Assembly (NCBI GenBank): GCA_964628345.1
Contig: CAZVLZ010000002.1
Span: 1-40,807, forward strand
DNA: 40,807 nt
Reading direction: 5' to 3'
DNA from: an uncultured Candidatus Peribacteria bacterium
GTDB taxonomy: Bacteria > Patescibacteriota > Gracilibacteria > Peribacterales > Peribacteraceae
The notes under the pieces are model-generated. The model was given only the letters and a program-made list of their open reading frames with translations, ran no database searches and was not told the DNA's origin. The position numbers and the translations under genes were made by a program. Positions within the stretch are counted from its first letter, which is position 1. Every line of letters begins with the position of its first letter. Below, one piece after another: positions 3,130-37,886 of this stretch.

Positions 3130-3747
3130 TCAGGAAAGCGAGAGGCCACCCTGTCGTTTTGTCTGCGTGCCGTCTGTTCGGCTCAGGTCGATGATGGTGG
3201 ATGGTGGGACGGAAGGCAGTTCCCCACTATCGAGGATCAGATCAGGCTGCACAGTGGCCGATGCAAACTGCCGTTCAATCTCCTCCGCCGTGTAGGGGCT
3301 GGGTTCCCCGTGAAGATTGGCCGATGTCGTGGAGAGCGGACGGCCGAAGCGCGTAGCCAGTTCCATGGCGAGAGGGTGGGAGGAGATGCGGATGCCAAGG
3401 GAGGGCGTAGGGGATAGGGCGTGGGGCGTGGGGGAAATGGGAGGGGCATCTTTCCGAAGAGGGAGGATCAGGGTGAGGGGGCCAGGGAGGTGGCTGCTTG
3501 CCAGGCTCGTTGCCCGGTCGTTCCATTCCACATATCGTTTTGCCTCCTCCACTGATGGGAAGAGGGCGCTCACCGGCTGCTCCGCCGCACGCTTCTTGAT
3601 GGCGAAGAGTTTTGCCACAGCCTCTTCGCTCGCGAGGTCGCACGCCAGGCCGTAGCAGGTTTCCGTTGCGTGCGCGATGACGCCGCCTGCCGCCAGGATG
3701 CGCAGTGCCTCTTCCACTGCCTTCGGCGAAACCGCCACGCGCCGCAT
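3130..3747 (-). CDS. tsaC: L-threonylcarbamoyladenylate synthase (YrdC/Sua5 family)
   Basis: 205 aa with HATETCYGLACD, PGPLTLIL and LSTTSANLHGEP motifs. The start overlaps the dnaE stop (TGATG). Confidence 0.9.
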   Translation of the reverse strand: MRRVAVSPKAVEEALRILAAGGVIAHATETCYGLACDLASEEAVAKLFAIKKRAAEQPVSALFPSVEEAKRYVEWNDRATSLASSHLPGPLTLILPLRKDAPPISPTPHALSPTPSLGIRISSHPLAMELATRFGRPLSTTSANLHGEPSPYTAEEIERQFASATVQPDLILDSGELPSVPPSTIIDLSRTDGTQTKRQGGLSLS

Positions 3748-6700
3748 CAGGCCGCCGGAGAAGCGTAGAGGGCGAGAACATCTTCGATCTTCTTCTCGAG
3801 GATCGTCGACATGTTGATGGTCAGTGGCAGCGGAATCAGCTGGTCACCGATTTTGAGCTGCACTTTCTCCTTGCCGGGGAAGGTCTCGAGCACATGCTTC
3901 AAATCGAGCAGGAGTTTCTTGGGCGCTCGTTCCGGCAGCTCGATTGTGTGGATGGAAATCTGCGTCGAATAGGTTTTGGGTTCTGCGGGAGGAGCGGCCG
4001 TTTTCTCTTTGGATTGCGCCGGTTTACGCCGGGTGTCTGTTTCCTTCACGGCGGCTTCGGGCGCTTCGGTGTTCCCGAATCCCATGTCCTGCAGGAGATC
4101 CGCAACCGGCATTCCTTTGAGAATCCAGGCACTCAGGGGTCCATGGAAATCATCCCCCTGCGCGGTTTCAGCCACGGTCACCGTTGCACCGGCAATGACA
4201 TTTCCCTCCTCATCGACCAACTCGATTTCCTCCTGATCTTCGGGGCGCTTTCTGACGATCGACAGACCTGCACGGGCCTCCTCTTCGTCGAAGAATCCCT
4301 CCGCTTTCGCATGTGTGATCATCGTGGAGAGGACCGCGCGCTTGAGGGCATCGGCACGAATCTGCAGCTGGCCCGCTCGCAAATCCACTGTTCCTCCCAC
4401 GACCAGCACCGAATCCGGCATTTCCAGAATTTGGGCGAATTCGGCGTACACGCGCGGGAAGAGCGTAGCCTCCATCTTCCCCGTCGGGTCCTCCAGCAGG
4501 ATCACCGCCATCGTCTCGCCCTTTTTGGTCTGGATGCGCTTGATGTTCTCCACGAGGCCGGCGATCTTCACTTTCTTGCCGCTGTCTTTTGCAGTGAGGT
4601 CGGCGATGAGCTGCGCCTTCTTGCCGATGTACTTCTTGAGACCCGCGAGCGGGTGGCTGCTGACGTACATGCCGAGGGTCTCTTTCTCCCACTGGAGTTT
4701 TTGCAACGATGTCGCCTCCGGCGTCTTGGGAAACTCGATCTTCGCCTCATCCATGCCGGCATTGGTCGAAGCGAAGAGGTCATGCTGCGCCGCAGAGACA
4801 TCCCCGCTCCCCTTGGAGTAATCGACGATGCGTTCGTAGTGTTCGACGAGCGTTCGCCGCTCTCCGAGCGAGTCCAAAGCACCGGATTTCGCGAGAGCCT
4901 CAATCAACTTCTTGTTGAGCACTTTGGACGGCACACGACGCGCGAAATCTTCAATGGAGGTGAAGGGGCCGCGACACGTCACTCCATCCGTGCCTTTCGG
5001 TTCCCGGATATCGATGATCTGCTGCACGGAGCTCTCGCCGATGCCTTTGATCGCGGTCAAGCCGAAGCGGATGGAACCTACGGGTGAATGGCCGTTCGTC
5101 ATTTTCTTTCCGGGGGGCGGGATGGCGGTGAAGTGCCTGAGTGATTCATTGATGTCGGGTGGGAGTACCTGAATGCCCATCTGACGGCATTCCTCGATCT
5201 CGATCATCACGCGGTCCGTCCGCTGCGCATCCGAAGAGAGGAGCGCGGCCATGAATTCCGTCGGATAGTGCGCCTTGAGGTAGGCCGTCTCGAATGCGAT
5301 ACGGGCGTAACACGCGGCGTGCGCCTTGGGGAAACCATAGCCCGCGAACGGCATGATCACGTCCTCAAAGATCTTTTCGGCGAGCGCCTGGCCGTACCCC
5401 TTGCTCACGGCTCCTCGAATGAATTTGTCGCGCTGGGCATCGAGTTCCTTCTTAATCTTCTTGCCAATCGCCTTGCGCAGGATGTCCGCCTCGCCGAGTG
5501 AGTAACCGGCGAACACGCGTGCCAACTGAAGGATCTGTTCCTGATACACGCCGATGCCGTACGTCTCGCGGAAGATCGTCTCGAGATCCGGATGGATGTA
5601 CTCCACCTGCTCTTTGCCGTGTTTGCGCTTGATGAAGCTGGGGATCCAGTCCATGGGGCCGGGGCGGTAGAGGGCGGCCATCGCGGTGATGTCGCCGAAG
5701 GACGTGGGGACGAGTTGTTTCAGATACCGGCGCATGCCGGCAGATTCCAACTGAAAGACGCCCGTCGTGTCGCCGCGCTGAAGGAGCTGGTAGGTCTCGC
5801 GGTCCGCGAGCGGGAGCTTCGTCATGTCGAGCTTGATGCCGTGCAGTCGTTCGATGATCTCGAGCGTGGTCTGGATTACCGTGAGGTTGGTGAGGCCCAA
5901 GAAATCCATTTTGAGCAGTCCCAGTGCCTCGAGCGGCTTGGCTTCGTACTGCGTGATGATGATCTGTTCGTCCTTGGGCGCGCGCTGCAGCGCGGAATAC
6001 TGCACGGTGGGTTCCGGCGTGATGATGACCCCGCATGCGTGCACCGATACGTGACGCGCCTTGCCTTCCAGCCTGAACGCCGTGTCGATGATCTTCCTGT
6101 ACGTTTCGTTGCTGTCGTAGGCCGCCTTTAGTTCTGTAGTGTCCATGGCGTCCTTCAAAGTCGTTCCGGGGCGTTCGGGAATGAGCTTCGCCAGACTGTT
6201 CATTTCGAGGAAGGGCACGCCGTATGCGCGCCCGACGTCTTTCACCGCCGCGCGGGCCGCCAGCGTTCCGAAGGTGCAGATCTGTACCACGCGATCGCGT
6301 CCGTACTTTTCCCGCACGTATTCCAGCACTTCGTCACGGCGCGTATCGGCGAAATCCGTGTCGATATCCGGCATGGAGATGCGTTCGGGGTTTAAGAAGC
6401 GTTCGAAGATGAGGCCGTGCTCCAACGGATCGAGCGTCGTGATGTTGAGGCAGTACGAGACGATGGAACCTGCCGCTGATCCGCGCCCGGGTCCCACGGC
6501 GATGCCGCGGCGTTTCGCTTCGTTGATGAAATCGGCCACGATGAGAAAGTAGCCGGAGAAGCCCATGCTCTTGATGATGGAGAGTTCATGGTTCAGGCGC
6601 TCCTTCTGTTCCTGCGTCGCATTCGGATACCGCTGCGCAAAACCCTCTTCCGCGAGACGGCGGAGCGTCGACTCTTCCGTTTCCTGCTCTGCAACCGGAA

Positions 6701-7565
6701 AACGGGGGATGCGGTATTTCCCCAGCTCCAGTGTGACCGAGCAGCGATCGGCAATAATGCGGGTGTTTGCCAATGCTTCCGGCACATGGGCGAATGCCTT
6801 TTCCATCTCCTCAAACGGACGCATGGAGAAATCGCTGTCGCGCATCGAGAAACGCGTGGGGTCGCCGACGTTCGCATTCTTCTGGATGCAGAGCAGGACG
6901 TCGTGCGCCTCACTGTCCAGGGGGCGGCAGTAGTGACTGTTGCAGGTTGCGACCAGAGGCACATCCAGTTTTTTCGCCCAGGCGATGAGCTGCTGATTCA
7001 CCTCGTTCTGCCCCGTGACGTTGGGCAGGTCCATGAGTTCAAAGTAGAGATTGTCCTTTCCGAAGAACGAGCGGTAGAGCTCCGTGATTTCCCGGATGCG
7101 TTCGCCATCTTCCACGAGCGCCGCTTGCGGGACGGCGCCCGAAATGGGTCCCGTGAGAGCGATGAGTCCTTTGCCATATTGCCTGAGGAGCTCGCTATCC
7201 ACGCGCGGCTTGTAGTACATGCCTTCCATCGCCGCCTGCGTGGCGAGCGTGAGGAGGTTGCGATATCCCTCATCGTTCTCCGCGAGCAGTACGAGGGGGT
7301 AGCGTTTGGTGTCGGTACCGCTCTCCTGGTCGAACCGCGTGCGTGCGGCTACGTAGGTTTCGAGGCCGAGGATCGGCTTGAGTCCCGCTTTTCGGGCTGC
7401 CTGGTAGAACTCCACGAGGCCGTAGACGTATCCTTTATCGGCGATGCCGACGGCGGTCTGGTTCAGTTCTTTGGCGCGTGCCACGATCTCTTCGGGGCTG
7501 GGCAGCGCCTCGAGGAGGGAGTACGTACTATGGCAGTGTAGATGGACGAAATCTGGTGCTTTCAT
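3747..7565 (-). CDS. dnaE: DNA polymerase III alpha subunit
   Basis: 1272 aa. N-terminal PHP domain (HLHCHSTYSLLEA), polymerase core (PDIDTDF, GPGRGSAAGSIVSYCLNIT), OB-fold region, and a C-terminal extension. Confidence 0.97.
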   Translation of the reverse strand: MKAPDFVHLHCHSTYSLLEALPSPEEIVARAKELNQTAVGIADKGYVYGLVEFYQAARKAGLKPILGLETYVAARTRFDQESGTDTKRYPLVLLAENDEGYRNLLTLATQAAMEGMYYKPRVDSELLRQYGKGLIALTGPISGAVPQAALVEDGERIREITELYRSFFGKDNLYFELMDLPNVTGQNEVNQQLIAWAKKLDVPLVATCNSHYCRPLDSEAHDVLLCIQKNANVGDPTRFSMRDSDFSMRPFEEMEKAFAHVPEALANTRIIADRCSVTLELGKYRIPRFPVAEQETEESTLRRLAEEGFAQRYPNATQEQKERLNHELSIIKSMGFSGYFLIVADFINEAKRRGIAVGPGRGSAAGSIVSYCLNITTLDPLEHGLIFERFLNPERISMPDIDTDFADTRRDEVLEYVREKYGRDRVVQICTFGTLAARAAVKDVGRAYGVPFLEMNSLAKLIPERPGTTLKDAMDTTELKAAYDSNETYRKIIDTAFRLEGKARHVSVHACGVIITPEPTVQYSALQRAPKDEQIIITQYEAKPLEALGLLKMDFLGLTNLTVIQTTLEIIERLHGIKLDMTKLPLADRETYQLLQRGDTTGVFQLESAGMRRYLKQLVPTSFGDITAMAALYRPGPMDWIPSFIKRKHGKEQVEYIHPDLETIFRETYGIGVYQEQILQLARVFAGYSLGEADILRKAIGKKIKKELDAQRDKFIRGAVSKGYGQALAEKIFEDVIMPFAGYGFPKAHAACYARIAFETAYLKAHYPTEFMAALLSSDAQRTDRVMIEIEECRQMGIQVLPPDINESLRHFTAIPPPGKKMTNGHSPVGSIRFGLTAIKGIGESSVQQIIDIREPKGTDGVTCRGPFTSIEDFARRVPSKVLNKKLIEALAKSGALDSLGERRTLVEHYERIVDYSKGSGDVSAAQHDLFASTNAGMDEAKIEFPKTPEATSLQKLQWEKETLGMYVSSHPLAGLKKYIGKKAQLIADLTAKDSGKKVKIAGLVENIKRIQTKKGETMAVILLEDPTGKMEATLFPRVYAEFAQILEMPDSVLVVGGTVDLRAGQLQIRADALKRAVLSTMITHAKAEGFFDEEEARAGLSIVRKRPEDQEEIELVDEEGNVIAGATVTVAETAQGDDFHGPLSAWILKGMPVADLLQDMGFGNTEAPEAAVKETDTRRKPAQSKEKTAAPPAEPKTYSTQISIHTIELPERAPKKLLLDLKHVLETFPGKEKVQLKIGDQLIPLPLTINMSTILEKKIEDVLALYASPAA

Positions 7566-7695: not shown

Positions 7696-9288
7696 TTACA
7701 ATTCCGCGGCGCTCCTACACTGCTCCGCCACCTCCGTATCGAGTTCCGCACCGTTGATGTACGGAAAGCACTCGTCCTTGAAGACGATTTTCAAGATACG
7801 GTCCAGCTGCTTGTTGCAGGGACGGAAAATGCAGGAGGTGCGCAGGAATGCGGCGAAGTCGCGCACGAATTTTCGAAGCCCCTTGTCGGAGGTCTGTACG
7901 GTCAGAGAGAGCGCACGCACCTCCGTGCGCAACGGTACGAGGTTCTCGAAGACCTGGAGAGGAGCATCAATGGTTTTGGCGATCTGCATGCTCTCTTCTC
8001 TGGCCTGATTGAGGCTGAATTTCTGCAGGTACTGCTGCGCGTCAGCGCGCGCGCCGAGCATCCAGAGGAACATGCCGTTCTCCAGTGCTTCGGCGGCATC
8101 CCGTTCGGGCGTACCCTCGGCCAATGCATCGGAGTTGCGCAGGTACGCAGGAGGCAGACGGTCGCGACCCCAGCCGTTCCATAGGATGGAGAGCTTGGGC
8201 AGGAGGACGGTTTCGTTCGGTGAGAATGAGAAGGGACCGCGCCGCTCCCACTCGGCGACGCCCTCCGGGAGCTTTTCGCCTTCCGACAGACAGCCATTTT
8301 TCACCTGGTGCTGCCGCTTGCCACTTGCCCCCGCTCCGAAGTTTGAAAGATCCGTTCCCCCTCCGCCCAGGCGCTGTTCCAGATGCACGATAGTGTCTTT
8401 GACTGTGCCGATATCTGCAATCGCAGCGTCGCGGTCCTGCATCAGCTTCTGCAGACCTTCGATTTCCTTCTTGATGCCGTCTGGACCATTCATGCGACTC
8501 TGCAGGACCGAGAGGTCGCATCCGTATCCGATACCGGTGGGGGGCAGATAGTCGGTGGAGAAGGGGCAGGGCTCCTCTTCATCCTGCCCGCCCGTCTCCG
8601 TCGACGTGCAGCCCGCATCCACGCAGGCATAGCGTCTCTTGTAGACCGATCCGCGCGCGCCAACGCATATGTTATATTCCTCGTCGTTGCTCATCTGTTT
8701 GCATGCGGAAAGTCGTCCGTCTTCCTCCAGATCGCCCGGGCAGCACCAGTAGGGGGGCGGATCGAAACTGTAGTACGTCCCCTCTTCCTCATCCACATAG
8801 GTGGGGTCCCGTGCGCCGAGCAGGAGTGCCTTGTAGCGATTATTCAGGTAGCGCTGCATCGAAATCAATCGCGCCGCCTCAGAGACTTTGCCCGCTTCGA
8901 GAGCTTCGTTCTTGCGCATGCGCGCGCGTTCCATCCATCCTTCCAGAATGAGGGTGTCGAGCCGCAGGCAAGGTGGATTCTCCGCGAGGTCCTGCCGCTG
9001 TTCCACGATGCGCAGGTCCGTGTCGATCGTGAGGAGGAAGAAGCCGGTAACCTTGTCGAGCCAGAAAAGTCTGAGCATCTTATCTGTTGTGGATTCGCCT
9101 CCGTCGGAATTCCTGAGTCCCGCATCGACCCGGCGCACCACCCGTTCCACGTAGGGCGAGACGGGTGTGAGATCGGCGTACTGATCACCCTCCTGCGCCA
9201 AGGCTTCGGCGGGCAGGCCTGCAGCCACTGACCCGAAGACCAGGGAGAGGGAGAGGAAGCCGGCGAACGACAAGGGAGTGCGCTTCAT
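7696..9288 (-). CDS. secreted Cys-containing orphan protein (gene 5 of a 5-gene operon)
   Basis: 530 aa. Signal-peptide-like N-terminus (MKRTPLSFAGFLSLSLVFGSVAAGLPAEALA). ATGA overlap with the upstream gene. No recognisable family. Confidence 0.75.
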   Translation of the reverse strand: MKRTPLSFAGFLSLSLVFGSVAAGLPAEALAQEGDQYADLTPVSPYVERVVRRVDAGLRNSDGGESTTDKMLRLFWLDKVTGFFLLTIDTDLRIVEQRQDLAENPPCLRLDTLILEGWMERARMRKNEALEAGKVSEAARLISMQRYLNNRYKALLLGARDPTYVDEEEGTYYSFDPPPYWCCPGDLEEDGRLSACKQMSNDEEYNICVGARGSVYKRRYACVDAGCTSTETGGQDEEEPCPFSTDYLPPTGIGYGCDLSVLQSRMNGPDGIKKEIEGLQKLMQDRDAAIADIGTVKDTIVHLEQRLGGGGTDLSNFGAGASGKRQHQVKNGCLSEGEKLPEGVAEWERRGPFSFSPNETVLLPKLSILWNGWGRDRLPPAYLRNSDALAEGTPERDAAEALENGMFLWMLGARADAQQYLQKFSLNQAREESMQIAKTIDAPLQVFENLVPLRTEVRALSLTVQTSDKGLRKFVRDFAAFLRTSCIFRPCNKQLDRILKIVFKDECFPYINGAELDTEVAEQCRSAAEL

Positions 9289-11750
9289 TCTTGAGATGAA
9301 CTCGATGCGCCGCAGAAATCAGGTTTTTCAGAGGCGACACGCGGGCAGGTCGTGAGCGGGAATTGCGTCTTCTCCATTGCCCTGAGGAGTTGATTGCCCG
9401 TGCGCAGCGTGTCGGAGAGAACCATGCCTGCCCACGAGAGATACCGGCTCAGGAGCGAGGTGCCGATGCGTGTCGAAATGCTCTGCGTCATACGTTGCAG
9501 CGCGAGCGTGGGGGTTTCGTTCTCCTCAATTTGCGCGGTGAAACTGAGTACCGTCGACACGTAGTCGCTGCCGGGGATATCCAATCGCCGCAGATAGTCG
9601 AACTGGCAGAGGATCGGCGGGGTGGAAGAAGGGAGTCCGTTGATCTGACACAGTGCGCGATCCAGCGATTCCACGAGCAGGCGTGGATTGTAGGCGGGTA
9701 GCAGGGGAGGTGAGATGGCGGGGAGCGTGATCAAACCACCGGCCTGGGGATCACTGACAGCGCAGGTATCCCAGGGAAAGGCTTCATCCCCCGCGACCAA
9801 CGGCATGCGGCCGGGAATCACGCGCGATTGTTCGACGGACTGTTCCACGCACTGCCCGATGTAGCAGAGGTTATTGCCGATCGTGTTTTGGTACTTCGTC
9901 TGGCACCCGGGCGAACAGGCACCATTGAGACCTTCGATCATGGAAAGAACGCGGCTGTCCAGGCGGGCCATTCCCGAAAGTCCACCGCTCGTCAGTTCAT
10001 TGCAGGACGGTGAGGTTGTCGTCGCATCTTTGCGCTGGAGTTGTTGCTCCACCAGTGTCTTCATATTGGCGACGGCGAATGCGGAACAGGCCTTTTCCCC
10101 GAAGCGCTGACAGCTCGCATTGGCCGATCTCCCGGCGCATTCCTCCAGAGACATGCCCAATGCCTCCAGGATGCCATCCTCCGCCAGAATGCGGCAGGAG
10201 GCGCGATAGGCTTCGAATTCGTGCGCGCAGCAATGTTCCGCCGTGTCAAAAATATCCGTGTCGGCTGCGAGATTGCAGAGCTGCTGTGCATGGGTGAGTT
10301 CGTGGACCAGCATCGACAAGAGTCCGCTGCGTGGAGTATCGCTATCAATGCAGATGCGTATCTTTCCGTTTTCATCCTTGCGGCTGGTAGAGCCTGATGC
10401 CCCTCCCTCGCAACTCTCGTTGCATGCGATCTCGATCGAACAGAGGCTGCATTCCGATGTGCCTTGGGAGCTGGAAGAGGACTGCATGAGGACATCGCCC
10501 GGGATGCGCCACCAGCCCGTGCGGCAGATGTCGGGTCCGGAGGCCGAGAGCGTCACCGGTTGTTTGGCCTGCATCGGCTTGCACTCCGTCAGCACGATGG
10601 AGCGCGGCTCCTTATCTTCGATCTCAGCGTTGCACCGGTCATGGCGCAGCGGGCGGCAGAGGTAGCCGTCACGCGCGAAGGCAAGATGGCACAGCCCGCC
10701 TTCCTGCTCCGTGGGTTCCACGGGCGGGTCTTCGTACCGTCCTCCCGGGCGGATGGCGAAGCGCTCAAGCACCGTGCAGTACGACTCGCCGAGTGTGCGT
10801 GGGTCGCAATTCTCCCCGCCCACCATGCCGATGGGAACGGGCGTGAGCATCAGATCCCATCCCACGCCCACATCCCGCTTGATGGTCCCGTCCACATTCT
10901 CCGCCATCATCCAGACGATGACATGTGCCGGACTGTCGAGCCTGCGCAACGGGAAGATCACAATTTCTCCTTTCTGCAGGGGGGGGTCAAATGAGAGCGC
11001 CGCGGAGGGCAGGGCATTACGCAGAGCACGGAGTTTCTCCTCCACCTTGCACGCACGCTTCTCGATGGCTTCGAAGAGCTCTGTCGGGCCATTGACCTCG
11101 CGGCACGGTTCCTTGTCGAAAGCGCTGATGCCGTAGCGGTACCGCCAGACGGCGTGCGGCATTGCATTCTGGAGCTCCGCGCCCAGTTCGCTGAACATGC
11201 GGTCCGTGACGCTGTCCGGGCGGGGAACGGCGCGCACCTGCGGAAAGACTTCGGGAGTCAGCAGGACGTCATCCTGACTGCGCCAGAGGTTGCGAATCGT
11301 CAATGTGCGCTCGGCGATGGTGAACACCTCTCCCATGTTGCCGCTCACGCCGGTCTCGTAGCCCGTTGCGATGTGCAGGAGGTCCGTTGCGAGTGTCCGT
11401 GTTTCAAGGATGTCGGTTCCCCAGTCGCGGAACATCTGGTACTTCTGCGCACAGGCATCGAACGTGGCATCGTACATCTCGCAGAAGTCGTCGTAACGCG
11501 TTTCAAAGGCCGCCTTCACCACCTCTTTCATGTCCTCCACACTCTTGCCCTCCGGGATCATTTTCTCCTGCCCGGCCATCTGCGCCACGTATGCGATGAT
11601 CTCATCATCCACCTGCTCCAGAGCCACTTCCTGAAGCGTGATGGTATGCATCGTGTCGTAGAGCTGCAGTTCGTCGGGAGCCTGTGCGAGCACCGTGCCG
11701 ACAGGCAGGAGGAGGAGGAAGAAGCCGGCGTAGAGTGTACGGCGGTTCAT
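9285..11750 (-). CDS. secreted Cys-rich protein with an HExxH zincin-like motif (gene 4 of 5)
   Basis: 821 aa. Signal peptide MNRRTLYAGFFLLLLPVGTVLAQA. HELTH is encoded at 10304-10290, followed by HEFEAY 23 residues later. The start abuts the upstream stop. Confidence 0.78.
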   Translation of the reverse strand: MNRRTLYAGFFLLLLPVGTVLAQAPDELQLYDTMHTITLQEVALEQVDDEIIAYVAQMAGQEKMIPEGKSVEDMKEVVKAAFETRYDDFCEMYDATFDACAQKYQMFRDWGTDILETRTLATDLLHIATGYETGVSGNMGEVFTIAERTLTIRNLWRSQDDVLLTPEVFPQVRAVPRPDSVTDRMFSELGAELQNAMPHAVWRYRYGISAFDKEPCREVNGPTELFEAIEKRACKVEEKLRALRNALPSAALSFDPPLQKGEIVIFPLRRLDSPAHVIVWMMAENVDGTIKRDVGVGWDLMLTPVPIGMVGGENCDPRTLGESYCTVLERFAIRPGGRYEDPPVEPTEQEGGLCHLAFARDGYLCRPLRHDRCNAEIEDKEPRSIVLTECKPMQAKQPVTLSASGPDICRTGWWRIPGDVLMQSSSSSQGTSECSLCSIEIACNESCEGGASGSTSRKDENGKIRICIDSDTPRSGLLSMLVHELTHAQQLCNLAADTDIFDTAEHCCAHEFEAYRASCRILAEDGILEALGMSLEECAGRSANASCQRFGEKACSAFAVANMKTLVEQQLQRKDATTTSPSCNELTSGGLSGMARLDSRVLSMIEGLNGACSPGCQTKYQNTIGNNLCYIGQCVEQSVEQSRVIPGRMPLVAGDEAFPWDTCAVSDPQAGGLITLPAISPPLLPAYNPRLLVESLDRALCQINGLPSSTPPILCQFDYLRRLDIPGSDYVSTVLSFTAQIEENETPTLALQRMTQSISTRIGTSLLSRYLSWAGMVLSDTLRTGNQLLRAMEKTQFPLTTCPRVASEKPDFCGASSSSQE

Positions 11751-12533
11751 TTACGGCAAATCACGGAGAGGATCTTTTGCATTCCAGATGCGCGGCAGAC
11801 AGGCAGCGGCTTCCGCGCCCAGTGCGAGAGCATTGCGGACGTCGATGGATGCGCGCTCGATACACTGCAGTTCCGTATGGAGCGGGAGAAGACGGCTCAT
11901 GCCTGCCAGGACCGCGAGCGAGCGATTGAGTGTGGCCCGCGCGGTCGTGAGTTCCCGCGCGATGATCCGGTCTTCTTCCGTTGTTTCCTCCAGGAGCTGC
12001 GTGAGCACGGTTTCCGTCGATTCCCCCTTGGCTTTCAGTTTGCTTTCCAGCTCGTTGAGCGCGTCAGGGTGCAGGAAGTACAGGCGTTCCTCCAGTGCAC
12101 ATTCGTAAGAGCGGAGGAATTCGAGGAGCACGGCACTCATCTCCCACTGACTGACGGAAGTGTCCTTCCATCCCGGCAATTGAGCGGCCAGTTTCGTAAG
12201 CTCGGGTCCCGCGGGCAGCACGCCATTCCCCGTTTCCGCAGCGCACTGCGGCGCGCGTGCGAACGACTGTATGTGCTCTTCAATGACGGCGGCGGCGGTA
12301 TCGTGATACGCCTTCGGCCAATCGGCGAAATTTCCGTTCGTGAACGGCAGCCGCGAGTACCCTTCGCTGAAGCGCGAACAGGGCGTGAGAATGGAATTCT
12401 CCTTTTCGCGTTGTGCGAGCAACGCGATGCTCGTCCCCGTGGGCGCCATTTTGTTCATGACGATTCCGGCTCCACCCACCGCCAGCAGGAGGAAGAGGAG
12501 AGAGCCGATGATGCGCGAGGAGCGGTATGTCAT
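11751..12533 (-). CDS. signal-anchored / secreted orphan protein (gene 3 of 5)
   Basis: 260 aa. N-terminal hydrophobic segment IIGSLLFLLLAVGGAGIV. ATGA overlap with the upstream gene. The rest looks largely helical. Confidence 0.7.
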   Translation of the reverse strand: MTYRSSRIIGSLLFLLLAVGGAGIVMNKMAPTGTSIALLAQREKENSILTPCSRFSEGYSRLPFTNGNFADWPKAYHDTAAAVIEEHIQSFARAPQCAAETGNGVLPAGPELTKLAAQLPGWKDTSVSQWEMSAVLLEFLRSYECALEERLYFLHPDALNELESKLKAKGESTETVLTQLLEETTEEDRIIARELTTARATLNRSLAVLAGMSRLLPLHTELQCIERASIDVRNALALGAEAAACLPRIWNAKDPLRDLP

Positions 12534-13366
12534 TCTTCCGATGTGATGGGAGGACTTTCGTCACAACTGGCGATGAAGCAGGGGATGCGATAGAGGCTGC
12601 CGACGAGCTCCGCGGTTTTGCGCAGGGAATTGGCGAGCGGCCAGCGGAATTCCTGCAAAAAGGCGTCCATCTGGCCCGAAAGCTGGAGCAGGGAACGGTA
12701 GCCGGCGTCGTATTCCGTCGTCTGCTTCAGAAGATCCTTCTCGCGCTGCACGAGGCCGTCACGCACGAAGCGGCAGTACGTCAGCACATCGGCCTCCTCC
12801 ACTTTCTGTCCGTCCGCCGCGAACAGATGGCATGTGGGGAAGGTGGTCCGCTTCTCCTCAATGCACCCCGGCACCACAATCGTCACTTCCTGCGGGTCGG
12901 TGCCCGCCTGCTGCAGGGAATTCTCCACAACCTTGCAGACGATCGTGGAGCGGCACTTCAGCGTGCGGAAGGCCTGCGTGAGGTATGGCACCAGATCCGA
13001 GGTCGCGACGCGGCGTGTTTCGAAAATGCCTTTGCGCTGCGGGAGTTCGCTGCGCTCGTCCATCAGTGCATCGCGCCATTCCGTCTCTTCGTATCCCGGC
13101 GAAACCGATCGCCAGGTGTTCTCCTTCTCCTTGATCCAGGGCAGTCCGTCCGTGTCGAACCGGACTTCATTGACGGGAGCGTCTTTCGCCTTCTTCTGGC
13201 CGAAGAGGACGCTGCGGTACAGGCGCTGTTCTCTGGCGAGGGCCGTCTCGACCTCCGCGCGGCACGAGGCCATGTCCGCTCTGGCGGCAGACTGCGAGAA
13301 TCCCAGTGCGGGGACGATGAGCAGGAGAACGACGAGTGGCCAGTGGAGAGCTGAACGGCAGGTCAT
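12530..13366 (-). CDS. secreted orphan protein (gene 2 of 5)
   Basis: 278 aa. Signal peptide MTCRSALHWPLVVLLLIVPALGFSQSAARA. The start lies 1 nt after the upstream stop (TGAcATG). Confidence 0.72.
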   Translation of the reverse strand: MTCRSALHWPLVVLLLIVPALGFSQSAARADMASCRAEVETALAREQRLYRSVLFGQKKAKDAPVNEVRFDTDGLPWIKEKENTWRSVSPGYEETEWRDALMDERSELPQRKGIFETRRVATSDLVPYLTQAFRTLKCRSTIVCKVVENSLQQAGTDPQEVTIVVPGCIEEKRTTFPTCHLFAADGQKVEEADVLTYCRFVRDGLVQREKDLLKQTTEYDAGYRSLLQLSGQMDAFLQEFRWPLANSLRKTAELVGSLYRIPCFIASCDESPPITSEE

Positions 13367-13367
13367 G

Positions 13368-16300
13368 TCATGGGGAGGAGCTGCTCTGTCCGAAACGGGG
13401 AACGGGCAGCGTGATGGGGGCTGGAATATTGAAGGATGGCAGCATGTCGTCCGGATCGACGATGTAGGGGAAGGAGCTCGAGCTGTTTCCCGGGATTGTT
13501 TCCTTCCTCAGACGGTTGCGCAGATTCGCGAGATCCTCCTTGCCGGCATCTTCCTTTACTCCCTCGATACGCCATCCCTCGCGCGCGTACGATTTTTGCA
13601 CATTGAGAATCTGGCAAGCGAAGTCCTCGCGCGGGCAGGGCGGAACAGCTGTCGGGGGGGTAAGCTGCATACTCGGCAGTTTGCCTGCCGCATCAGCGCT
13701 CTTCAGCACCGTTGTCCGCTGTAACCCATACGCGGCGAAATCTTCCTTCAATTGGACGGCCGGCCGGGCGCCGATGCGGGTGAAACGTTCGAGCAGGTCC
13801 ATCTCGACGTGGACACAGGGCATGGCACTGAGGTTCTGGCAGTCCCACTTCTTCTCAGGGACATCTTGTTCGGGATAGGTCGTGATGCTGTCCCAGAACG
13901 TCTTGTACGTCTCATCCATTTTCGTGAACATCTCTGCGATGCGGTCCATCACCTGTCCGACCTTCGGCGGGAGAGTCGCGACAGTCGGATTCGCCTGTGA
14001 AGGGGAAGACAGGTGGATGACCTTGGTTGGAAAGAGAGTACTCAACACTTCCCGATAGATGGTCGGCACGGGAGGGAGATCCGGCAATTTGCTCAGCTCT
14101 TCCAGCTGCGCAGACACATCGGCGACATCTTCGTAGAACGCAGGAGGATTGAGGAGGGGTTGATTCAGCCGGATTTGGATGGGATTCAGGACAGGCAGCA
14201 GGACGGTTCCTGTCGATACCCGCAACGCCGTGAAGTCGTACACGAGATCGGGCAGAATCGTGACGTTCAGCCGCGGGAGTTTTTCCGTTTCCAGATCATT
14301 CGCCGGCGGATCATCGATGTTCAGTGTGAGATTGCGCGGATTCGCCGGCCCCGGCATCCACTGGTCAAGGAAGGAGTAAACGGGTGTGGTGAAGCGGTCA
14401 TTGCGGCACCAGGGCATGTTCGTCTGGTCGTGGAAGACGCGGTATTTCTGCTGAATTTCCTCCCACTTCGGTTTGAGCGTGAGGCTCTGCTGCCGGAGGG
14501 CGGAGTAGCGCTCCCACGTTCCCAGGTTCTGTGTCAGCCAATCGCCGATTGCCCGCATCATCTCGCCCTGGTAGGTGAGCAGTCTGCCGATGTACTGCGC
14601 CATTTCCCCCCGCAGTTGTCGCACCTGATCGATGCGCTCCGCGTAGTCCTCGAGTTTTTTCGCCACCATCTCCGCTTTCACTTTTGCCTCTCCCTCCCGT
14701 TCCTCACCCCAGCGCTTCCAACCCTGTGCGAGTGCACGGAGCTCCGCGGGAGAGGCAAGCGGTACGACGAGCGGAACCGTTTCCTCCTGCACGTGGATGA
14801 GGAGGCCGTTCTGCAGGTAGGCGCTCACTTCGGAAAGCAGGTCTTCGGGTGAGGAGCGGACCTGGATGTCAATGATCTGCCGGTTGAACGGACGCGAACT
14901 CTGCGCACTGCTGCTTTGCGGAGTCAGGAAAGGATCATGGAGATCCAGTCCGACGGTCGTGGGCGTTGGCAGGATGAGCCGGAGGACGGGAGAGGTGAAA
15001 AGTTTGTGCGCCTGCGTCTGCTGCTCTTGCCACCACTCCGTGATCACGCGTCGACCGGGGTTGTCGGTATTGACTGTGTCATCCGTGGATCGCAGTAAGC
15101 TCCCGCTCGAGAACGGCCGTTCCTTATCCAGCTGTGCCGTGGGCATCATGTCGGTACTGTCGAGTTGCAGGAGCGGGAAGAGGTTGTCTTTGGGCGATTG
15201 CTGGATCTTTTTGCCATTCAGGAGCGAAAAAGCATCGCTGAAATCGTTCACCCACAAATCCTTGCGCGTGTCGCGCGCGGCCGCGTGCTCGTATGCGGGA
15301 TCCGTCAGGTTCGAGTTTTGCCCGTATTCCCCTTTTCCCTTCTGCGTCTCCTTCATGGTGTTGAATTTCTTGTCGCTCTCTTCCAGCCGGATCACGCACC
15401 GGTAATCGTCCGTGGTTGTGCGGCGGGACCTGGGATCGAATTCGTCGTACGGGCAATAGCAGTCGACGGGAATGTCGGTTCGTCGCGTGTCGTCCCGTTC
15501 CACGGCGGGCAGGGCATCGCGTTCGTAGCTGACGAGATAGCGCCGGTAATACGACAGGTATTCCCTGCCGTTCGCAATCGTTTTGCCTTTGCGGCATCCG
15601 GTGTCTTCGAGATCCGCCGGCACTTCGGCGTTGAAGTCGAAACCGGGGTTGTTGCGATCTTCCAGCCCATCCCCTCTGCAGGTAATGCAGTTGGCATTCG
15701 CCGTATCCGCAATGGGGGCATCGGAGCAGCAGTAGAGCTGTTCGTCGGTCGCGCACGAGACGGAGGCATAAGGATAGGATGCCTGCAGACGCTGATCCAC
15801 CGGCACCCAGGACTCGTCTCCGCTGTGGCACCAGTCGTTATTCTGGTTGTTGAAACACGGGCTGGTGTCTTCCATAGTCACCGAGACAACCGTTGCCGGA
15901 TCACCTTCCAGCCACGATGCCGTGCAGATCATGTGTCGCTTCACCCAAAAGTTCAGTTGCGTGCACACTTCCTGGCAGCCCTCCGGACTCGCGCATTTGT
16001 ACTCCTCATAGTTCCCGCCAGTCGGAAGACACTCCTGCTTGTACGGAAAGCTGAAATCACATTCATTCACACGGCAGACGGTGGATCTGCCGGTTGCTTT
16101 GTCCGATGGCGGGAAGACGAAGCCGTTTTCCAGCGCTCCACTGGTTTCGTCGCGCCTTGCCAGGCCGCCTGCCGTCACTTCTGACATCAGCGTGTTCGTC
16201 GTGTCCACGAGCAGCCCTCTCCGTCCCGGTGCACCTGTCACCTTCGGGATCTTTCCGTCGATGCTCTGCGCAAAATCCCAGCCGCCGCACATCGCCTCGG

Positions 16301-16454
16301 CGATGTCGCCCCGCACCATACCCACATTGGTCTGCACCGTCTCGAAATCCGTCGGCTCATCGATCGTGAGGGCGCTCGCGCTCTGCGCGAAGAGAGCCCC
16401 CGACGTCAGCAGACCTGCCACGATGATGAGAGGGGATTTCAGACACACGTGCAT
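13368..16454 (-). CDS. large secreted Cys-rich orphan protein (gene 1 of 5)
   Basis: 1028 aa. Signal peptide MHVCLKSPLIIVAGLLTSGALFAQSASA. The N-terminal ~350 aa are dense in Cys, followed by a long helical mid-section and a Pro-rich C-terminal third. No recognisable family. Confidence 0.78.
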   Translation of the reverse strand: MHVCLKSPLIIVAGLLTSGALFAQSASALTIDEPTDFETVQTNVGMVRGDIAEAMCGGWDFAQSIDGKIPKVTGAPGRRGLLVDTTNTLMSEVTAGGLARRDETSGALENGFVFPPSDKATGRSTVCRVNECDFSFPYKQECLPTGGNYEEYKCASPEGCQEVCTQLNFWVKRHMICTASWLEGDPATVVSVTMEDTSPCFNNQNNDWCHSGDESWVPVDQRLQASYPYASVSCATDEQLYCCSDAPIADTANANCITCRGDGLEDRNNPGFDFNAEVPADLEDTGCRKGKTIANGREYLSYYRRYLVSYERDALPAVERDDTRRTDIPVDCYCPYDEFDPRSRRTTTDDYRCVIRLEESDKKFNTMKETQKGKGEYGQNSNLTDPAYEHAAARDTRKDLWVNDFSDAFSLLNGKKIQQSPKDNLFPLLQLDSTDMMPTAQLDKERPFSSGSLLRSTDDTVNTDNPGRRVITEWWQEQQTQAHKLFTSPVLRLILPTPTTVGLDLHDPFLTPQSSSAQSSRPFNRQIIDIQVRSSPEDLLSEVSAYLQNGLLIHVQEETVPLVVPLASPAELRALAQGWKRWGEEREGEAKVKAEMVAKKLEDYAERIDQVRQLRGEMAQYIGRLLTYQGEMMRAIGDWLTQNLGTWERYSALRQQSLTLKPKWEEIQQKYRVFHDQTNMPWCRNDRFTTPVYSFLDQWMPGPANPRNLTLNIDDPPANDLETEKLPRLNVTILPDLVYDFTALRVSTGTVLLPVLNPIQIRLNQPLLNPPAFYEDVADVSAQLEELSKLPDLPPVPTIYREVLSTLFPTKVIHLSSPSQANPTVATLPPKVGQVMDRIAEMFTKMDETYKTFWDSITTYPEQDVPEKKWDCQNLSAMPCVHVEMDLLERFTRIGARPAVQLKEDFAAYGLQRTTVLKSADAAGKLPSMQLTPPTAVPPCPREDFACQILNVQKSYAREGWRIEGVKEDAGKEDLANLRNRLRKETIPGNSSSSFPYIVDPDDMLPSFNIPAPITLPVPRFGQSSSSP

Positions 16455-16464
16455 CGTGGCCGAT

Positions 16465-16473
16465 ATCGTACCA
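16465..16473 (-). promoter_or_regulatory. candidate extended -10 (TGGTACGAT) for the 5-gene operon
   Basis: TGnTAnnnT lies 10 nt upstream of the ATG at 16454. It is embedded in the inverted repeat CGTGG(16455-59)/CCACG(16471-75). Confidence 0.35.
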
Positions 16474-16478
16474 CGATA

Positions 16479-16513
16479 GGGATTGGGGATTAGAGATTAG
16501 GGATTGGGAATTG
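16479..16513. repeat. five tandem heptamers: GGGATTG GGGATTA GAGATTA GGGATTG GGAATTG
   Basis: Read directly from the sequence. Located in the divergent region between the 5-gene operon and ssb. Confidence 0.9.
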
Positions 16514-16643
16514 TGGGAGCTTGAATACATTGCGAATGAGACTCTGCGATTGTTCAACTCCTTTCGTTTGCGCGGGGATTTCTCGGGTGTACCGTGCCCC
16601 TCCGCGGCACAGTGGCCTCCTCTATTTACTTTCCCCATACGGC

Positions 16644-17501
16644 ATGTTTTCCCTCAATCGCGTGCACATCATCGGTTATCAGACACAACCTGTTGAAATT
16701 CGCCAGACTCCCGGAGGGACGAGTGTCGTTGATTTGAATCTGGTCGTGCCGTACTCCTTTCAGGCTGAGAAGGGCGAGACGCTGCAGGGGCGCGCGTTCC
16801 ACACGGTGACCCTTTGGGGCTCCATGGCGGATTTCGCCGGCCAGTACGTGCGGCCGGGTTCGCAGATCTTCATCGGCGGACGACTGCAGACGGACTCCTG
16901 GGAGGATCAGACCACGCACGAGAAGCGCAACAAGACGAAAATCGTGGCGCTCGACATGATCCTGCTCGATCCGAAGGACGGGCAGCTGCCGACTCCGGAT
17001 GCCGCCAAACTCACCCTCAATGCCGTGAACCGCGCGGATATCGTCGGCAACATCACCCGTGACCCCGAGATCCGCACGACCACCGGCGGCAAGCAGGTGC
17101 TCACACTGGGAGTCGCCACCAATGATCGCTGGAAGGAGCGTTCCACCGGCGAGACCAAGGAGCGCGCCGAGTTCCATAACGTGGTGATCTGGGGTGCGCT
17201 TGCCGAGGAGGTGGGCAAGATCGTGCACAAAGGCAGCCGCGTCTTTGTCTCGGGCCGCGTACAGACACGGAGTTGGGAAACACAGCAGGGTCAGAAGCGC
17301 ACGACCACCGAGATCGTCGCCGATCAGTGCGCGCTGCTCGGCGTGCGCAATGCTTCTGCGCTTGAGACTGTGGAGACGAGTGCGCAGCGTCGTTCCACCC
17401 CGCGGTCGCACGAGGCGCCTTCCGCCGAAGCACCGGCATCGGCAGATATCCCCGACATTCAGTATGCCTCTGAGGTGAAAGTGGAGGATCTGCCGTTTTG
17501 A
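16644..17501 (+). CDS. ssb: single-stranded DNA-binding protein with two tandem OB folds
   Basis: Start trimmed to MFSLNRVHIIGY. Two SSB-like OB domains (NRVHIIGYQTQPVEIRQTPGG...GRLQTDSWED and NRADIVGNITRDPEIRTTTGG...GRVQTRSWET). Disordered tail ending in EDLPF. Confidence 0.9.
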   Translation: MFSLNRVHIIGYQTQPVEIRQTPGGTSVVDLNLVVPYSFQAEKGETLQGRAFHTVTLWGSMADFAGQYVRPGSQIFIGGRLQTDSWEDQTTHEKRNKTKIVALDMILLDPKDGQLPTPDAAKLTLNAVNRADIVGNITRDPEIRTTTGGKQVLTLGVATNDRWKERSTGETKERAEFHNVVIWGALAEEVGKIVHKGSRVFVSGRVQTRSWETQQGQKRTTTEIVADQCALLGVRNASALETVETSAQRRSTPRSHEAPSAEAPASADIPDIQYASEVKVEDLPF

Positions 17502-17558: not shown

Positions 17559-18254
17559 ATGCCAATGGAAGTCCCTTCACCCATTAATCCCTTTTCTCAA
17601 GCGGAGGATTGTCCGCCCCTTCCCCGTCAGGATTGCAGCGTCGAACAGGTGACGGCCTTCTATCACAACCTCTCGCAGCAAACGTGTCCTGCGCTGCGTG
17701 CTAAAGATGGTGCGTCTATCGGGTACCGGAGAGATGGTCACACGTTCATACTCGCGTTCGATCACGACTCGGCGTCCGTCGCATCTTCTGCGCCCGCGGA
17801 ATGGGCGGCGGAGTCCAGTCTTCCTTTCACCGCGGATGATCTGCCGGTTTTTATGGGTGCCATCAAAGCGGTTCGTACCGAGACGCAGAAAACCCGTCAG
17901 CAGGTATCTGATCTTTCCCTGGCATCGGAAGATCCATCATTTTCGTGCCTGTCCGATGAATTACCTTCTTCCCTCACCGTTCCTGTTTTTTCCTGCGTCA
18001 TTCCGTCACCACGGGCCGATGAGGTCAATGTGCTCGCACTCGTCAAAGGGGAAGAGCGGTACGTGCTTCTCTACACTGACGACAATCGTGCGGAGGCGCT
18101 GCGTGTGCTCGGAAGATTCGCGAGCGATCCGGATCTCAGCTTCACCTGGTACGACGCTGCTGTTTTAAGCCAGAAAATCCGACACGAGTCGCAGAAAACA
18201 CAGTCCTATCAACAGATGTTTCCGTGGGCTCCGCCACCTGTTTTCCATTTGTAG
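17559..18254 (+). CDS. hypothetical protein
   Basis: 231-aa ORF downstream of ssb with genome-typical codon bias. No recognisable motif. The start could instead be M3 (17565). Confidence 0.55.
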   Translation: MPMEVPSPINPFSQAEDCPPLPRQDCSVEQVTAFYHNLSQQTCPALRAKDGASIGYRRDGHTFILAFDHDSASVASSAPAEWAAESSLPFTADDLPVFMGAIKAVRTETQKTRQQVSDLSLASEDPSFSCLSDELPSSLTVPVFSCVIPSPRADEVNVLALVKGEERYVLLYTDDNRAEALRVLGRFASDPDLSFTWYDAAVLSQKIRHESQKTQSYQQMFPWAPPPVFHL

Positions 18255-19642: not shown

Positions 19643-20107
19643 TTATTTTTTGGATAAGAACTGCGCCGTGCGTTCCATTGCGTCCGCAATGCGCTGCGCA
19701 CGGGCCAATTTTTGCATGCGTGCGAGGACGGAGGTCAGGACGGCCAATCCGACCAGTCCTCCTGCAACGAGCATGAGTTCCCGTGTGCCCAGTCTGTAGT
19801 CCAACATGGCGAGTGCCACTTGAGCCAGCGCGAAGAGGAAAATGCCGAAGAGCGTCCCCACCCCCAATGTGACGATGATGAGGTGTGTGCGGTTTTCTTG
19901 GCTGTCCTGCGGGGCGCTGGCGAGCTGCGTGAGGAGCTCGCTTGAGAGGATCACCGGTTCCTTATCCCATTGCTTGAACAGCTGGAAGACTTTGCGCTGC
20001 AGTACGAGGCTGACAAAAGTGCGGAAGGGGACCGATGTTTTGCCGGTGATGACGGCTTTGCTCTGTTCCGTTCGAAGTTCCACTTCAAGATCGGCGGTTT
20101 CGGACAT
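19643..20107 (-). CDS. hypothetical membrane protein (two C-terminal TM helices)
   Basis: 154 aa. Hydrophobic segments LIIVTLGVGTLFGIFLFALAQVALAML and LMLVAGGLVGLAVLTSVLA. C/T-rich leader ttttccccctgacccATG. Confidence 0.65.
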   Translation of the reverse strand: MSETADLEVELRTEQSKAVITGKTSVPFRTFVSLVLQRKVFQLFKQWDKEPVILSSELLTQLASAPQDSQENRTHLIIVTLGVGTLFGIFLFALAQVALAMLDYRLGTRELMLVAGGLVGLAVLTSVLARMQKLARAQRIADAMERTAQFLSKK

Positions 20108-20137
20108 GGGTCAGGGGGAAAACGGCGATATCGTACC

Positions 20138-21837: not shown

Positions 21838-21941
21838 AGAGGAAAGAGGAACGTTTGCGGATCAAAAACCTCACGACGGATATACCCTAGCGTTCTCACT
21901 TTCCACTTTCCACTTACATCTTTCCTCTTTCCTCTTTCCTC
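21838..21941 (-). promoter_or_regulatory. gltX leader with heptad repeats complementary to its own initiation region
   Basis: TTTCCTC x3 on the plus strand at 21921-21941 (GAGGAAA x3 in the mRNA). This is complementary to GAGGAAAGAGGAA at 21838-21850, which is the C/T-rich stretch just upstream of the GTG start in the mRNA. CTTTCCAC/TTTCCAC also occurs at 21899-21913. Confidence 0.4.
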
Positions 21942-22604
21942 TTATTTCACCTCCACCGTGAACGTGACCGGTTCCGCGGGCTGCTCGCGCTCGCCGGTTT
22001 GTACCTGACTGATGGCGTCCACCACATCCATGCCCTCTGTCACATGGCCGAAGGGTGTGTGCTTACCCACGAGCCACGGCGTGCCATCGGCACGCGTGAT
22101 GATGAAGAACTGGCTACCGTTGGTATCGGGGCCGCGGTTGGCCATGGCGATCGCTCCGCGTGCGAGAGGGATGGGATTATTCGCCGTTTCGTCTTCAAAC
22201 GTCGGGCCGAAAACACTCGCTCCCCCCGTTCCGTTTCCGTTGGGATCGCCTCCCTGAATCATGAAATCCTTGATGACACGATGGAAGGTGAGCCCGTTGT
22301 AGTAACCGATGCGCGACAGCACGACGAAGTTCGTGACCGTTTTGGGAGCGCTGTCCGCGTCCAGCTCCAGCGTCACATCACCCATGCTCGTGCGCAGGAT
22401 GACCGTGTGCTTGCCGGTGAGGAGCGTTCCGTCAAAGATGGATTCGATGGTGGGAGGCACGTTTTCGGGAGGAACACCAGATTCCGGAGGAGTCGTCTCT
22501 CCAGGGACGGATGGGGTTTCTTCTGCCGGCGTATTCTGCTGCCCGCACCCCACAAGGAGAGCAAGCGCAAAAAGCGGGATGAGGAAGACGTAGTACTTTT
22601 TCAT
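21942..22604 (-). CDS. ppiB: peptidyl-prolyl cis-trans isomerase, cyclophilin type, lipoprotein
   Basis: FHRVIKDFMIQGGDP and the wider cyclophilin core. N-terminal signal with lipobox LLVGC. Confidence 0.92.
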   Translation of the reverse strand: MKKYYVFLIPLFALALLVGCGQQNTPAEETPSVPGETTPPESGVPPENVPPTIESIFDGTLLTGKHTVILRTSMGDVTLELDADSAPKTVTNFVVLSRIGYYNGLTFHRVIKDFMIQGGDPNGNGTGGASVFGPTFEDETANNPIPLARGAIAMANRGPDTNGSQFFIITRADGTPWLVGKHTPFGHVTEGMDVVDAISQVQTGEREQPAEPVTFTVEVK

Positions 22605-26808: not shown

Positions 26809-29547
<2,739 letters not shown>

Positions 29548-35824: not shown

Positions 35825-35897
35825 TTCAGTGAACGCAGAATGGAGGATGGTGAGGAAAGAGCTTGCAGATGTGAGAAAAACAGTGCTTCATTTTGGA

Positions 35898-37136: not shown

Positions 37137-37145
37137 GCGGCGGCG

Positions 37146-37886
37146 TTATTTAAGTTCTTTCAGGTTCTTTGCGATGCGACGCTCAAACGCATGGTCATCC
37201 GCAACAATGCGGCCATCCATAATACGGATGATGCGCGCGGCGTGTTCCGCCGTCGTTTTCTCGTGCGTCACCAGGATGATCGTGTGCCCCTCCTCGTGCA
37301 GATTCTGCAGGATTTCCATCACGTGTTTGCCTGCGGCGGAATCGAGGTTGCCTGTCGGTTCATCCGCGAAGATGACCCCCGGTTCCGTGACGAGCGCGCG
37401 CGCGATCGCCACGCGTTGCTGCTGCCCGCCGGAGAGCTGATTACTGAGGTAGGTTGCGCGATCCGTCAGCCCCACGGCCTTGATGGCCTTCATGACCTTT
37501 TCACGCCGCTCCGCCGACTTTGTTGCGCTGTGGTACAACAGGGGCAGCGTGACATTATCGATGACCGATGTTCTCGGGAGAAGGTTGAAGGACTGAAAGA
37601 CGAAGCTGACGCTCGAGGAGCGGATGCGTGCGAGTTCGTCCTCACTCTTCTCCTCCGTCGATTCGCCCCGAAAGTCGTAGTGGCCGGACGTTGGCACATC
37701 CAGAAATCCCAGAATGTGCATGAGTGTGGATTTGCCGGAACCGGAGGGTCCCATGATCGCCACGAATTCCCCGGCATCAATGCGCAGATTGATATCGAAG
37801 AGCACGGGCGTTTCCACCTGCTCATTGAAGTACGACTTGTGCAGGTTTCTCGTTTCGATCAGCGGTGCGGATTCTTTTTTCGTCAT
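37146..37886 (-). CDS. ABC transporter ATP-binding protein (MacB/LolD-type)
   Basis: Start trimmed to [20 protein letters not shown] (Walker A), [26 protein letters not shown]. Confidence 0.93.

Follow-up and report, generated by a model that had tools for sequence, protein, structure and literature searches.

A conserved five-gene block encoding predicted exported, Cys-rich orphan proteins in the class Peribacteria

Peribacteria, like other Candidate Phyla Radiation (CPR) bacteria, are uncultivated, and their envelope and cell interactions are largely inferred. The closest described counterparts of the proteins considered here are the large Cys-rich extracellular proteins of Peribacter riflensis, which average 1655 amino acids (aa) in length and about 7% Cys (5-11% for most entries in Table S4 of the paper), carry pappalysin- or FG-GAP-like annotations, vary between strains, and have been proposed to act in attachment (Anantharaman et al. 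2016, PeerJ, PMC4736985). Here we analyze five consecutive genes, P1 to P5, on a 40,807-nucleotide (nt) stretch of DNA from an uncultured Candidatus Peribacteria bacterium (contig CAZVLZ010000002.1 of assembly GCA_964628345.1, positions 1 to 40,807 of the forward strand), the whole of which we call the window. The orthologues of P1 to P5, open reading frames (ORFs) 963-967 of RIFOXYC2, lie outside Table S4 and are annotated only as 'hypothetical protein'.

We propose that the block encodes a constitutive, membrane-tethered, disulfide-stabilized extracytoplasmic complex specific to Peribacteria, a reading to which we give an even chance and within which the complex itself, its disulfide partners, a leaderless start and a role in the envelope are the parts that we infer. 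It draws on the conservation of the block, on signal-type N-termini in all five products, and on the parity of their Cys residues.

Conservation and layout of the five-gene block

The five genes are laid out in the window as follows:

13368..16454, minus strand: P1, 1028 aa
12530..13366, minus strand: P2, 278 aa
11751..12533, minus strand: P3, 260 aa
9285..11750, minus strand: P4, 821 aa
7696..9288, minus strand: P5, 530 aa

Across some 45 related loci, we found that P1 to P5 always adjoin one another in an unchanged order, most often with ssb and dnaE on either side. The full order (ssb, divergent from P1, then P2, P3, P4, P5 and dnaE) is present in P. riflensis and two other lineages; the block, located with a P4 profile, is contiguous and identically ordered in 18 of 18 GTDB species representatives; and 20 of 20 metagenome loci, recovered with the most divergent P4 subclass (the 6-sequence alignment A9), keep the order, complete loci in full and partial contigs collinear to their ends. 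The two most distant P1 relatives also keep the P1-P5 order, and in both a small additional gene separates P5 from dnaE. Inserts were never inside P1-P5; where they occur, they separate P5 from dnaE or ssb from P1. Specifically, we noted P5-dnaE insertions of 0.5-5.5 kb at five loci (L014, L017, L040, L045 and L046), including a dksA/traR-type zinc-finger gene at L045; L017 also has an insertion between ssb and P1, and at L046 there is no ssb match on the record beside P1.

Searched exhaustively with HMMER, the P4 profile returned 268 clusters at 50% identity (E <= 1e-3), and a word-index search with the 19-species P4 alignment gave the same 21 proteins again. The names attached to the P4 and P1 homologues are Candidatus Peribacter, Peribacteraceae or Peregrinibacteria, which places the window in the class Peribacteria; every recovered relative locus examined shows a context of the ssb/P1-P5/dnaE type, and the block is apparently single-copy. 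By sequence comparison, the block appears restricted to the class Peribacteria, where it occurs in every sampled genome, with no detectable relative elsewhere. The guanine-cytosine content of the related loci ranges from 41 to 64%. Identity to the window's DnaE remains at 65-74% where the five proteins drop to 25-36%, all at a similar pace (for example, ~71-78% for the five vs 85% for DnaE at L007, and 28-36% vs 66% at L021).

The junctions from P1 to P5 read, in order, TGAcATG, ATGA, TAA/ATG and ATGA, corresponding to +1, -4, 0 and -4 nt. We found no canonical Shine-Dalgarno sequence ahead of any of the five starts, and no minus-strand terminator-like site either within P1-P5 or in the 130-nt gap before dnaE; a promoter-like site is present in that gap. 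With few exceptions among 19 other species, junction spacing stays within -8 to +7 nt, and the outliers trace to uncertain start calls and to one split P1 gene. In that gene (L022:1069-3896), a 658-aa ORF is followed by more matching sequence, a frameshift or pseudogene or else an assembly error. All five ORFs are kept with invariant Cys, Trp, Pro and Gly columns even at 25-35% identity; since such columns persist over this divergence, conservation is far above chance and the ORFs are real coding sequences. An earlier note on this DNA had described five coupled minus-strand ORFs of these sizes forming one translationally coupled transcription unit; the ORFs and junctions are exactly as it gave them, and the tight junctions here and across species support the single unit. 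A single, constitutively transcribed unit confined to the class Peribacteria is part of our proposal, to which we give an even chance. The note had also proposed looking for co-occurrence of the five genes in related genomes, and the fixed order in about 45 loci shows that their linkage is conserved.

None of the five proteins has a significant match in Pfam or NCBIfam, including in scans of each member of the P1, P4 and P5 families (in Pfam, no match among 31 P1 members), nor in PHROGs or PADLOC. Single sequences had no match among PDB sequences, and profiles of all five families yielded only noise there (E >= 0.16). No relatives were found on viral contigs or in phage genomes; with this result and no PHROGs or PADLOC matches, we rejected phage, plasmid-like and defence origins. 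Fold-level comparison covered the two largest proteins, and Foldseek returned nothing significant for P4 against the PDB or for P1 against the PDB and BFVD. Matches of P1 to the rhabdovirus G protein, a class III fusion glycoprotein, are noise (E 0.1-4, probability <= 0.1, template-modeling score <= 0.12), as are recurring arrestin matches (probability <= 0.1). An all-against-all hhalign comparison revealed no paralogy among the five families beyond their signal peptides, and five unrelated families are expected of distinct subunits rather than of a paralogue array. Thus, the statement in the earlier note that no family could be assigned holds against all these collections, and the hidden Markov model (HMM) or structural match to a described machinery for which it had suggested searching did not appear: no known kind of system matches any of the five proteins at the sequence level, or P1 or P4 at the level of predicted folds. 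In the searchable literature we found the orthologues only as 'hypothetical protein', and did not find the operon, its families, their synteny, the parity rule described below or the modular P4.

Exported proteins, Cys parity and the P4 module

A hydropathy scan of all five proteins located one hydrophobic 19-mer in each, at the N-terminus and with K/R ahead of it, and every homologue examined of every family likewise has a signal-type N-terminus. The features found are those of exported proteins (a basic n-region, a hydrophobic h-region, a small-residue cleavage site and no second membrane segment), and they support the prediction that all five products are exported. The N-terminus of P3 is the most hydrophobic of the five and has no obvious cleavage site, and in three lineages (L021, L022 and L024) a lipobox (LAGC or LTGC) takes the place of the anchor; among the window's five proteins, we found no lipobox of the form L-[AS]-[GA]-C. 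Because of its uncleaved-looking N-terminus and the lipobox in these lineages, P3 is likely to be a membrane tether, through a signal anchor here and through a lipid anchor in other lineages.

The Cys content of the five proteins is 1.9-4.0%, and there are 24, 8, 5, 33 and 14 Cys after the signal segments of P1 to P5. These numbers match the hand counts in the earlier note (about 24, 8, 5, about 33 and 14), and its description of a basic N-terminus followed by a hydrophobic signal in all five is borne out by hydropathy and by conservation among homologues. Across homologues, the numbers of Cys in the mature proteins are as follows:

P1: 20-34, even in 27/27 homologues
P2: 8 in 26/31, even in 27/31
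P3: 5, 7 or 9, odd in 33/33
P4: 13-41, odd in 132/137
P5: 14 in 20/36, even in 26/36

For P4, the odd parity has a binomial p of about 4e-33, without correction for shared ancestry. Since parity holds while the totals vary, gains and losses of Cys have evidently occurred in pairs, a pattern characteristic of disulfide bonding. P3 and P4, whose genes abut, each keep one unpaired Cys, for which the most economical reading would be an intermolecular disulfide, either between P3 and P4 or homodimeric. One disulfide-formation protein has been reported in P. riflensis (PMC4736985).

The five proteins differ in architecture. In P1, the signal peptide is followed by a beta-rich Cys domain (residues ~58-360) and then by a bundle of helices (569-679), and the C-terminal region, with the motifs PWCRNDRFTTP and CVHVEMD, is conserved. 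Its AlphaFold2 model, built from 31 diverse sequences, is usable, with a mean predicted local distance difference test score (pLDDT) of 67.6 and a predicted template-modeling score of 0.61; the beta-rich Cys domain (58-360) reaches a pLDDT of 80-94, and residues 569-679 form a four-helix region. An RGD at 260-262 of P1 was set aside, as its Arg is not conserved. P2 consists of a signal peptide and a region with 8 invariant Cys, and P3 has 5 invariant Cys. In two P2 homologues (L016:7813-8706 and L019:690-1685), long poly-Ser tracts lie just after the signal or lipobox, the L019 protein being a lipoprotein (LAGC) with a long Ser-rich linker; in both lineages, P3 is extended at its C-terminus by an Asp-rich stretch. 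These poly-Ser tracts and extensions may be linkers or glycosylation regions. P5 carries 14 Cys besides its signal peptide, and its C-terminal motif CIFRPCN...ECFPY is conserved. A C-terminal sortase signal, LPXTG followed by a hydrophobic segment and a basic tail, was found in none of the five proteins, the sole match being an internal LPPTG at residues 248-252 of P5 (8545-8559 of the window, minus strand) within a conserved motif, DYLPPTxxGYGC. Ser tracts, which the earlier note had reported as SSSS in the large proteins, were located at 991 and 1024 of P1 and at 424 and 816 of P4. No haem-binding CxxCH was found in the five proteins.

Apart from its signal peptide, P4 comprises a scaffold of conserved N- and C-terminal parts that contains 13 core Cys, an odd number, and into which a Cys-rich HExxH module is inserted:

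9921..10517, minus strand: central module of P4, optional in the family, at residues ~412-610 and bearing H483-E-L-T-H487 (nt 10290-10304) and E511

Although the P4 AlphaFold2 model (21 sequences) is poor (pLDDT 54), the module alone reaches 80-88. All 19 species aligned in A5 share H483, E484 and H487. In contrast, conservation of the catalytic residues throughout the P4 family was not found: the module is present in 130 of 149 P4 representatives and absent from 19 (13%), and among the 130 the HExxH is intact in 86 (66%; 85 of these also have E511) and degenerate in 44 (34%). A P4 subclass of 614-760 aa lacks exactly residues ~412-610. We also noted a close P4 homologue with 55% identity (P0018) that has HALAN in place of HELxH (alignment A1, columns ~520-525).

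The module gives sub-threshold matches to Pfam M76 (18.7 bits against a cut-off of 25.2; 3/19 members; aligning 432-549) and to DUF6782 (20.1 bits against a cut-off of 27; 2/19 members; aligning 462-497). Like peptidase M76 (Atp23-like) and DUF6782, it combines an HExxH with a conserved Glu 24 residues downstream in a Cys-rich setting; unlike them, it is inserted in an unrelated 600-aa scaffold, and its motif is not conserved throughout the family. Whole-chain Foldseek with the poor P4 model gave a best E of 0.67, with DPP III and a collagenase peptidase domain among the non-significant matches. It is plausible that this zinc-metallopeptidase-like module is active in this genome. Since many homologues have it degenerate or missing and yet conserve the remaining P4 sequence and the operon, the alignments mark it as an accessory element and not the core function of the P4 family. 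Thus, the HExxH site that the earlier note had seen is real (HELTH at 483-487 of P4), but dispensable in many homologues. We considered a cysteine-switch role for the unpaired Cys of P4, and rejected it because homologues without the module also have odd numbers.

The upstream region and neighboring genes

Two features lie in the region between P1 and the divergent ssb:

16465..16473, minus strand: extended -10-like sequence, TGGTACGAT, 10 nt ahead of the P1 ATG
16479..16518, no strand assigned: heptamer array GGGATTG x5.6 (Tandem Repeats Finder), C-rich on the operon strand

The candidate extended -10 of the earlier note is found at P1, and it is conserved in relatives: GGTACGATAnnnnnCCAC(G/A)ATG is kept directly before P1 in 8 Peribacter-level relatives, and in more distant lineages TATACT or TAAAAT lies 7-8 nt ahead of the P1 ATG. 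The core 9-mer has 2 matches in the window, against 0.04 expected by chance. A -10-like element conserved at a fixed distance from the P1 ATG supports a transcript whose 5' end would coincide with the start codon or precede it by a few bases, implying a leaderless or near-leaderless mRNA. An identical 12-mer, GGTACGATATCG, occurs before P1 (16461-16472, minus strand) and before an orphan 154-aa gene at 19643-20107 (20126-20137, minus strand), where it lies ~20 nt ahead of the ATG; it may be a promoter or operator common to the two genes. No Rfam element was found in the window.

The heptamer array had been presented in the earlier note as an unusual G-tract feature ahead of the operon. The array is real, but similar ones occur elsewhere in the window: there are four short tandem arrays, their periods ranging from 7 to 41 bases, of which two are immediately upstream of aspS (1852-1944) and of gltX (21899-21943), and two, at 25604-25634 and 29363-29401, are close to the GT2 ORF's 5' end and to secA's 3' end. 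Since comparable arrays precede aspS and gltX, we rejected the array as an operon-specific regulator and regard it as one instance of a wider feature of the window. C-rich repeats at the matching position occur only in close relatives. The array is probably promoter-region low-complexity DNA that is not particular to this operon.

The two flanking genes were identified by Pfam:

3747..7565, minus strand: dnaE, the usual downstream neighbor, on the same strand as P5 and separated from it by a 130-nt gap
16644..17501, plus strand: ssb, divergent from P1, with two OB/SSB domains

Upstream on the same strand as the block lie a GT2 gene, ftsW, murG, and genes for cyclophilin, gltX and murB, with murA and lspA also upstream in other genomes; downstream lie dnaE, sua5, nrdR and aspS. 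The housekeeping neighborhood that the earlier note had perceived between dnaE and ssb is thus confirmed. The SSB protein is 285 aa long, with two Pfam SSB/OB stretches in a single polypeptide, a tandem-OB architecture best known from Deinococcus-Thermus. Two more ORFs in the window have no Pfam match, one of 231 aa (17559-18254, plus strand) and one of 746 aa (35679-37919, plus strand); the latter, between MacB-like and HlyD-like genes, overlaps both adjacent ORF calls and may not be a real gene.

Interpretation and comparison with known systems

If the block does encode a membrane-tethered complex, transcription would start at the conserved -10 element ~10 nt before the P1 ATG, yielding a leaderless or near-leaderless mRNA whose downstream cistrons would be translated by termination-reinitiation across TGAcATG, ATGA and TAAATG, and the products would be made in fixed proportions. 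All five would be exported by Sec and would then undergo oxidative folding outside the cytoplasm to give disulfide-locked proteins. P3 would stay in or on the cytoplasmic membrane by its N-terminal anchor (a lipid anchor in some lineages), tethering an assembly that would contain P4 and probably P1, P2 and P5. The unpaired Cys of P3 and P4 would form an intermolecular disulfide, P3-P4 or homodimeric, and the inserted zinc-metallopeptidase-like module of P4, intact here, would be accessory to the core function. In our view, such an assembly would most likely serve the envelope or surface of Peribacteria in a housekeeping capacity, rather than as a variable adhesin, because the block is universal in the class with invariant order and sizes, because it sits among cell-wall and replication genes, and because the orthologous ORFs 963-967 are outside the strain-variable Cys-rich set.

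Several points weigh against this proposal. Contact among the five proteins is something that we infer, and the signal peptides were assessed by hydropathy and conservation. The unpaired Cys could be free thiols or metal ligands; evolution faster than that of DnaE would also fit proteins facing another organism; and the position beside housekeeping genes may only mirror the stable gene order of small genomes. Moreover, with models of P1 and P4 only, the latter at a pLDDT of 54, a hidden fold kinship to a known system is conceivable.

The working hypothesis of the earlier note was a multi-subunit apparatus at the cell surface, for example for attachment to a partner cell. Its multi-subunit part is strengthened, because the block is uninterrupted in ~45 loci, the five proteins diverge at similar rates, and P3 and P4 share an odd number of Cys. 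Its attachment example we judge a live alternative but an unlikely one: the block would then specify a disulfide-stiffened surface structure by which the cell attaches to, or interacts with, a host or a partner. CPR bacteria are thought to be symbionts, which counts in favor of attachment, as do the export of all five proteins, their divergence about twice as fast as that of DnaE, and the elongated beta-rich Cys domain in the P1 model. The attachment role proposed for the Cys-rich extracellular proteins of P. riflensis (PMC4736985) points the same way. However, the block is apparently single-copy with an order and size that are invariant across the class, it lies beside murA-ftsW-murG-murB and dnaE, no adhesin-type domains or repeats were found in the five proteins, and Table S4, with its variable Cys-rich proteins, does not include ORFs 963-967, all of which suits a constitutive envelope role at least equally well; nor was strain-level variation seen, though no direct test of it was made.

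The intact HExxH...E site of P4 here, the lack of relationship among the five families and the lack of direct evidence for an assembly would all suit five independent proteins of the secreted or wall zone (for example, a protease with other hydrolases or scavenging binders) that are co-transcribed but form no complex. We consider this improbable, since the HExxH module is degenerate in 34% of its carriers and absent from 13% of representatives while the remainder of P4 and the operon are conserved, order and tight coupling are kept over deep divergence, odd Cys parity is common to P3 and P4, and no enzyme family was detected for P1, P2, P3 or P5. Most improbable in our estimate is that the block encodes, in strongly diverged form, some machine already described (for example, a pilus of the type IV or sortase kind, an S-layer, or a system for secretion or conjugation). 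Genes for type IV pili, type II secretion, sortase and S-layer are present elsewhere in the Peribacteria genome (PMC4736985), and the low confidence of the models leaves room for missed similarity; yet no HMM, PDB-sequence or Foldseek match was obtained. In the block there is no ATPase, polytopic membrane protein or prepilin-type N-terminus, which fails to fit a type IV pilus or type II secretion system, and no C-terminal LPXTG; neither VirB4/VirD4-type ATPases nor VirB6/VirB8-like components were matched by Pfam or NCBIfam in the five proteins or the flanks. The same two collections gave no SLH or other recognized S-layer or anchoring domain, and an S-layer protein of unrecognized type is conceivable.

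A more far-reaching version of the proposed complex is possible, if doubtful: a novel, covalently linked extracellular machine that defines Peribacteria, tethered to the membrane and joined by a P3-P4 disulfide, as a new envelope layer or as the organelle with which these ultra-small cells contact a host. If this were true, P1 would be the distal effector and the metallopeptidase module of P4 a maturation or remodeling activity. Conserved orphan operons are common in CPR genomes, which tempers the significance of any one of them. The block takes up 8.8 kb of a genome of ~1.25 Mb (that of P. riflensis), bears strong signs of oxidative folding outside the cytoplasm, and is a concrete candidate for a lineage-defining surface structure. 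The operon offers five new protein families and a defined gene set to express, and it yields definite predictions: that P3 is an anchor, that P3 and P4 have one unpaired Cys apiece, that the protease module is optional and that the start is leaderless.

In its general plan, the block resembles the lipoprotein-anchored complexes of monoderm bacteria, in which a subunit with an N-terminal anchor or lipobox is co-encoded with Sec-exported partners in one operon; to monoderm membrane-tethered, disulfide-linked complexes the likeness is one of analogy only, with no sequence or fold relationship found. With the Cys-rich proteins of P. riflensis, it shares the organisms, signal peptides, a predicted extracellular location and a Cys content above the bacterial norm, and envelope or attachment roles have been proposed for both. 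Unlike that set, the proteins of this operon contain 1.9-4.0% Cys, have no repeat architecture, and are encoded in a class-wide invariant order. Exported Cys-rich proteins of Peribacteria are already published as a general phenomenon; the features of this operon are those that we did not find in the searchable literature.

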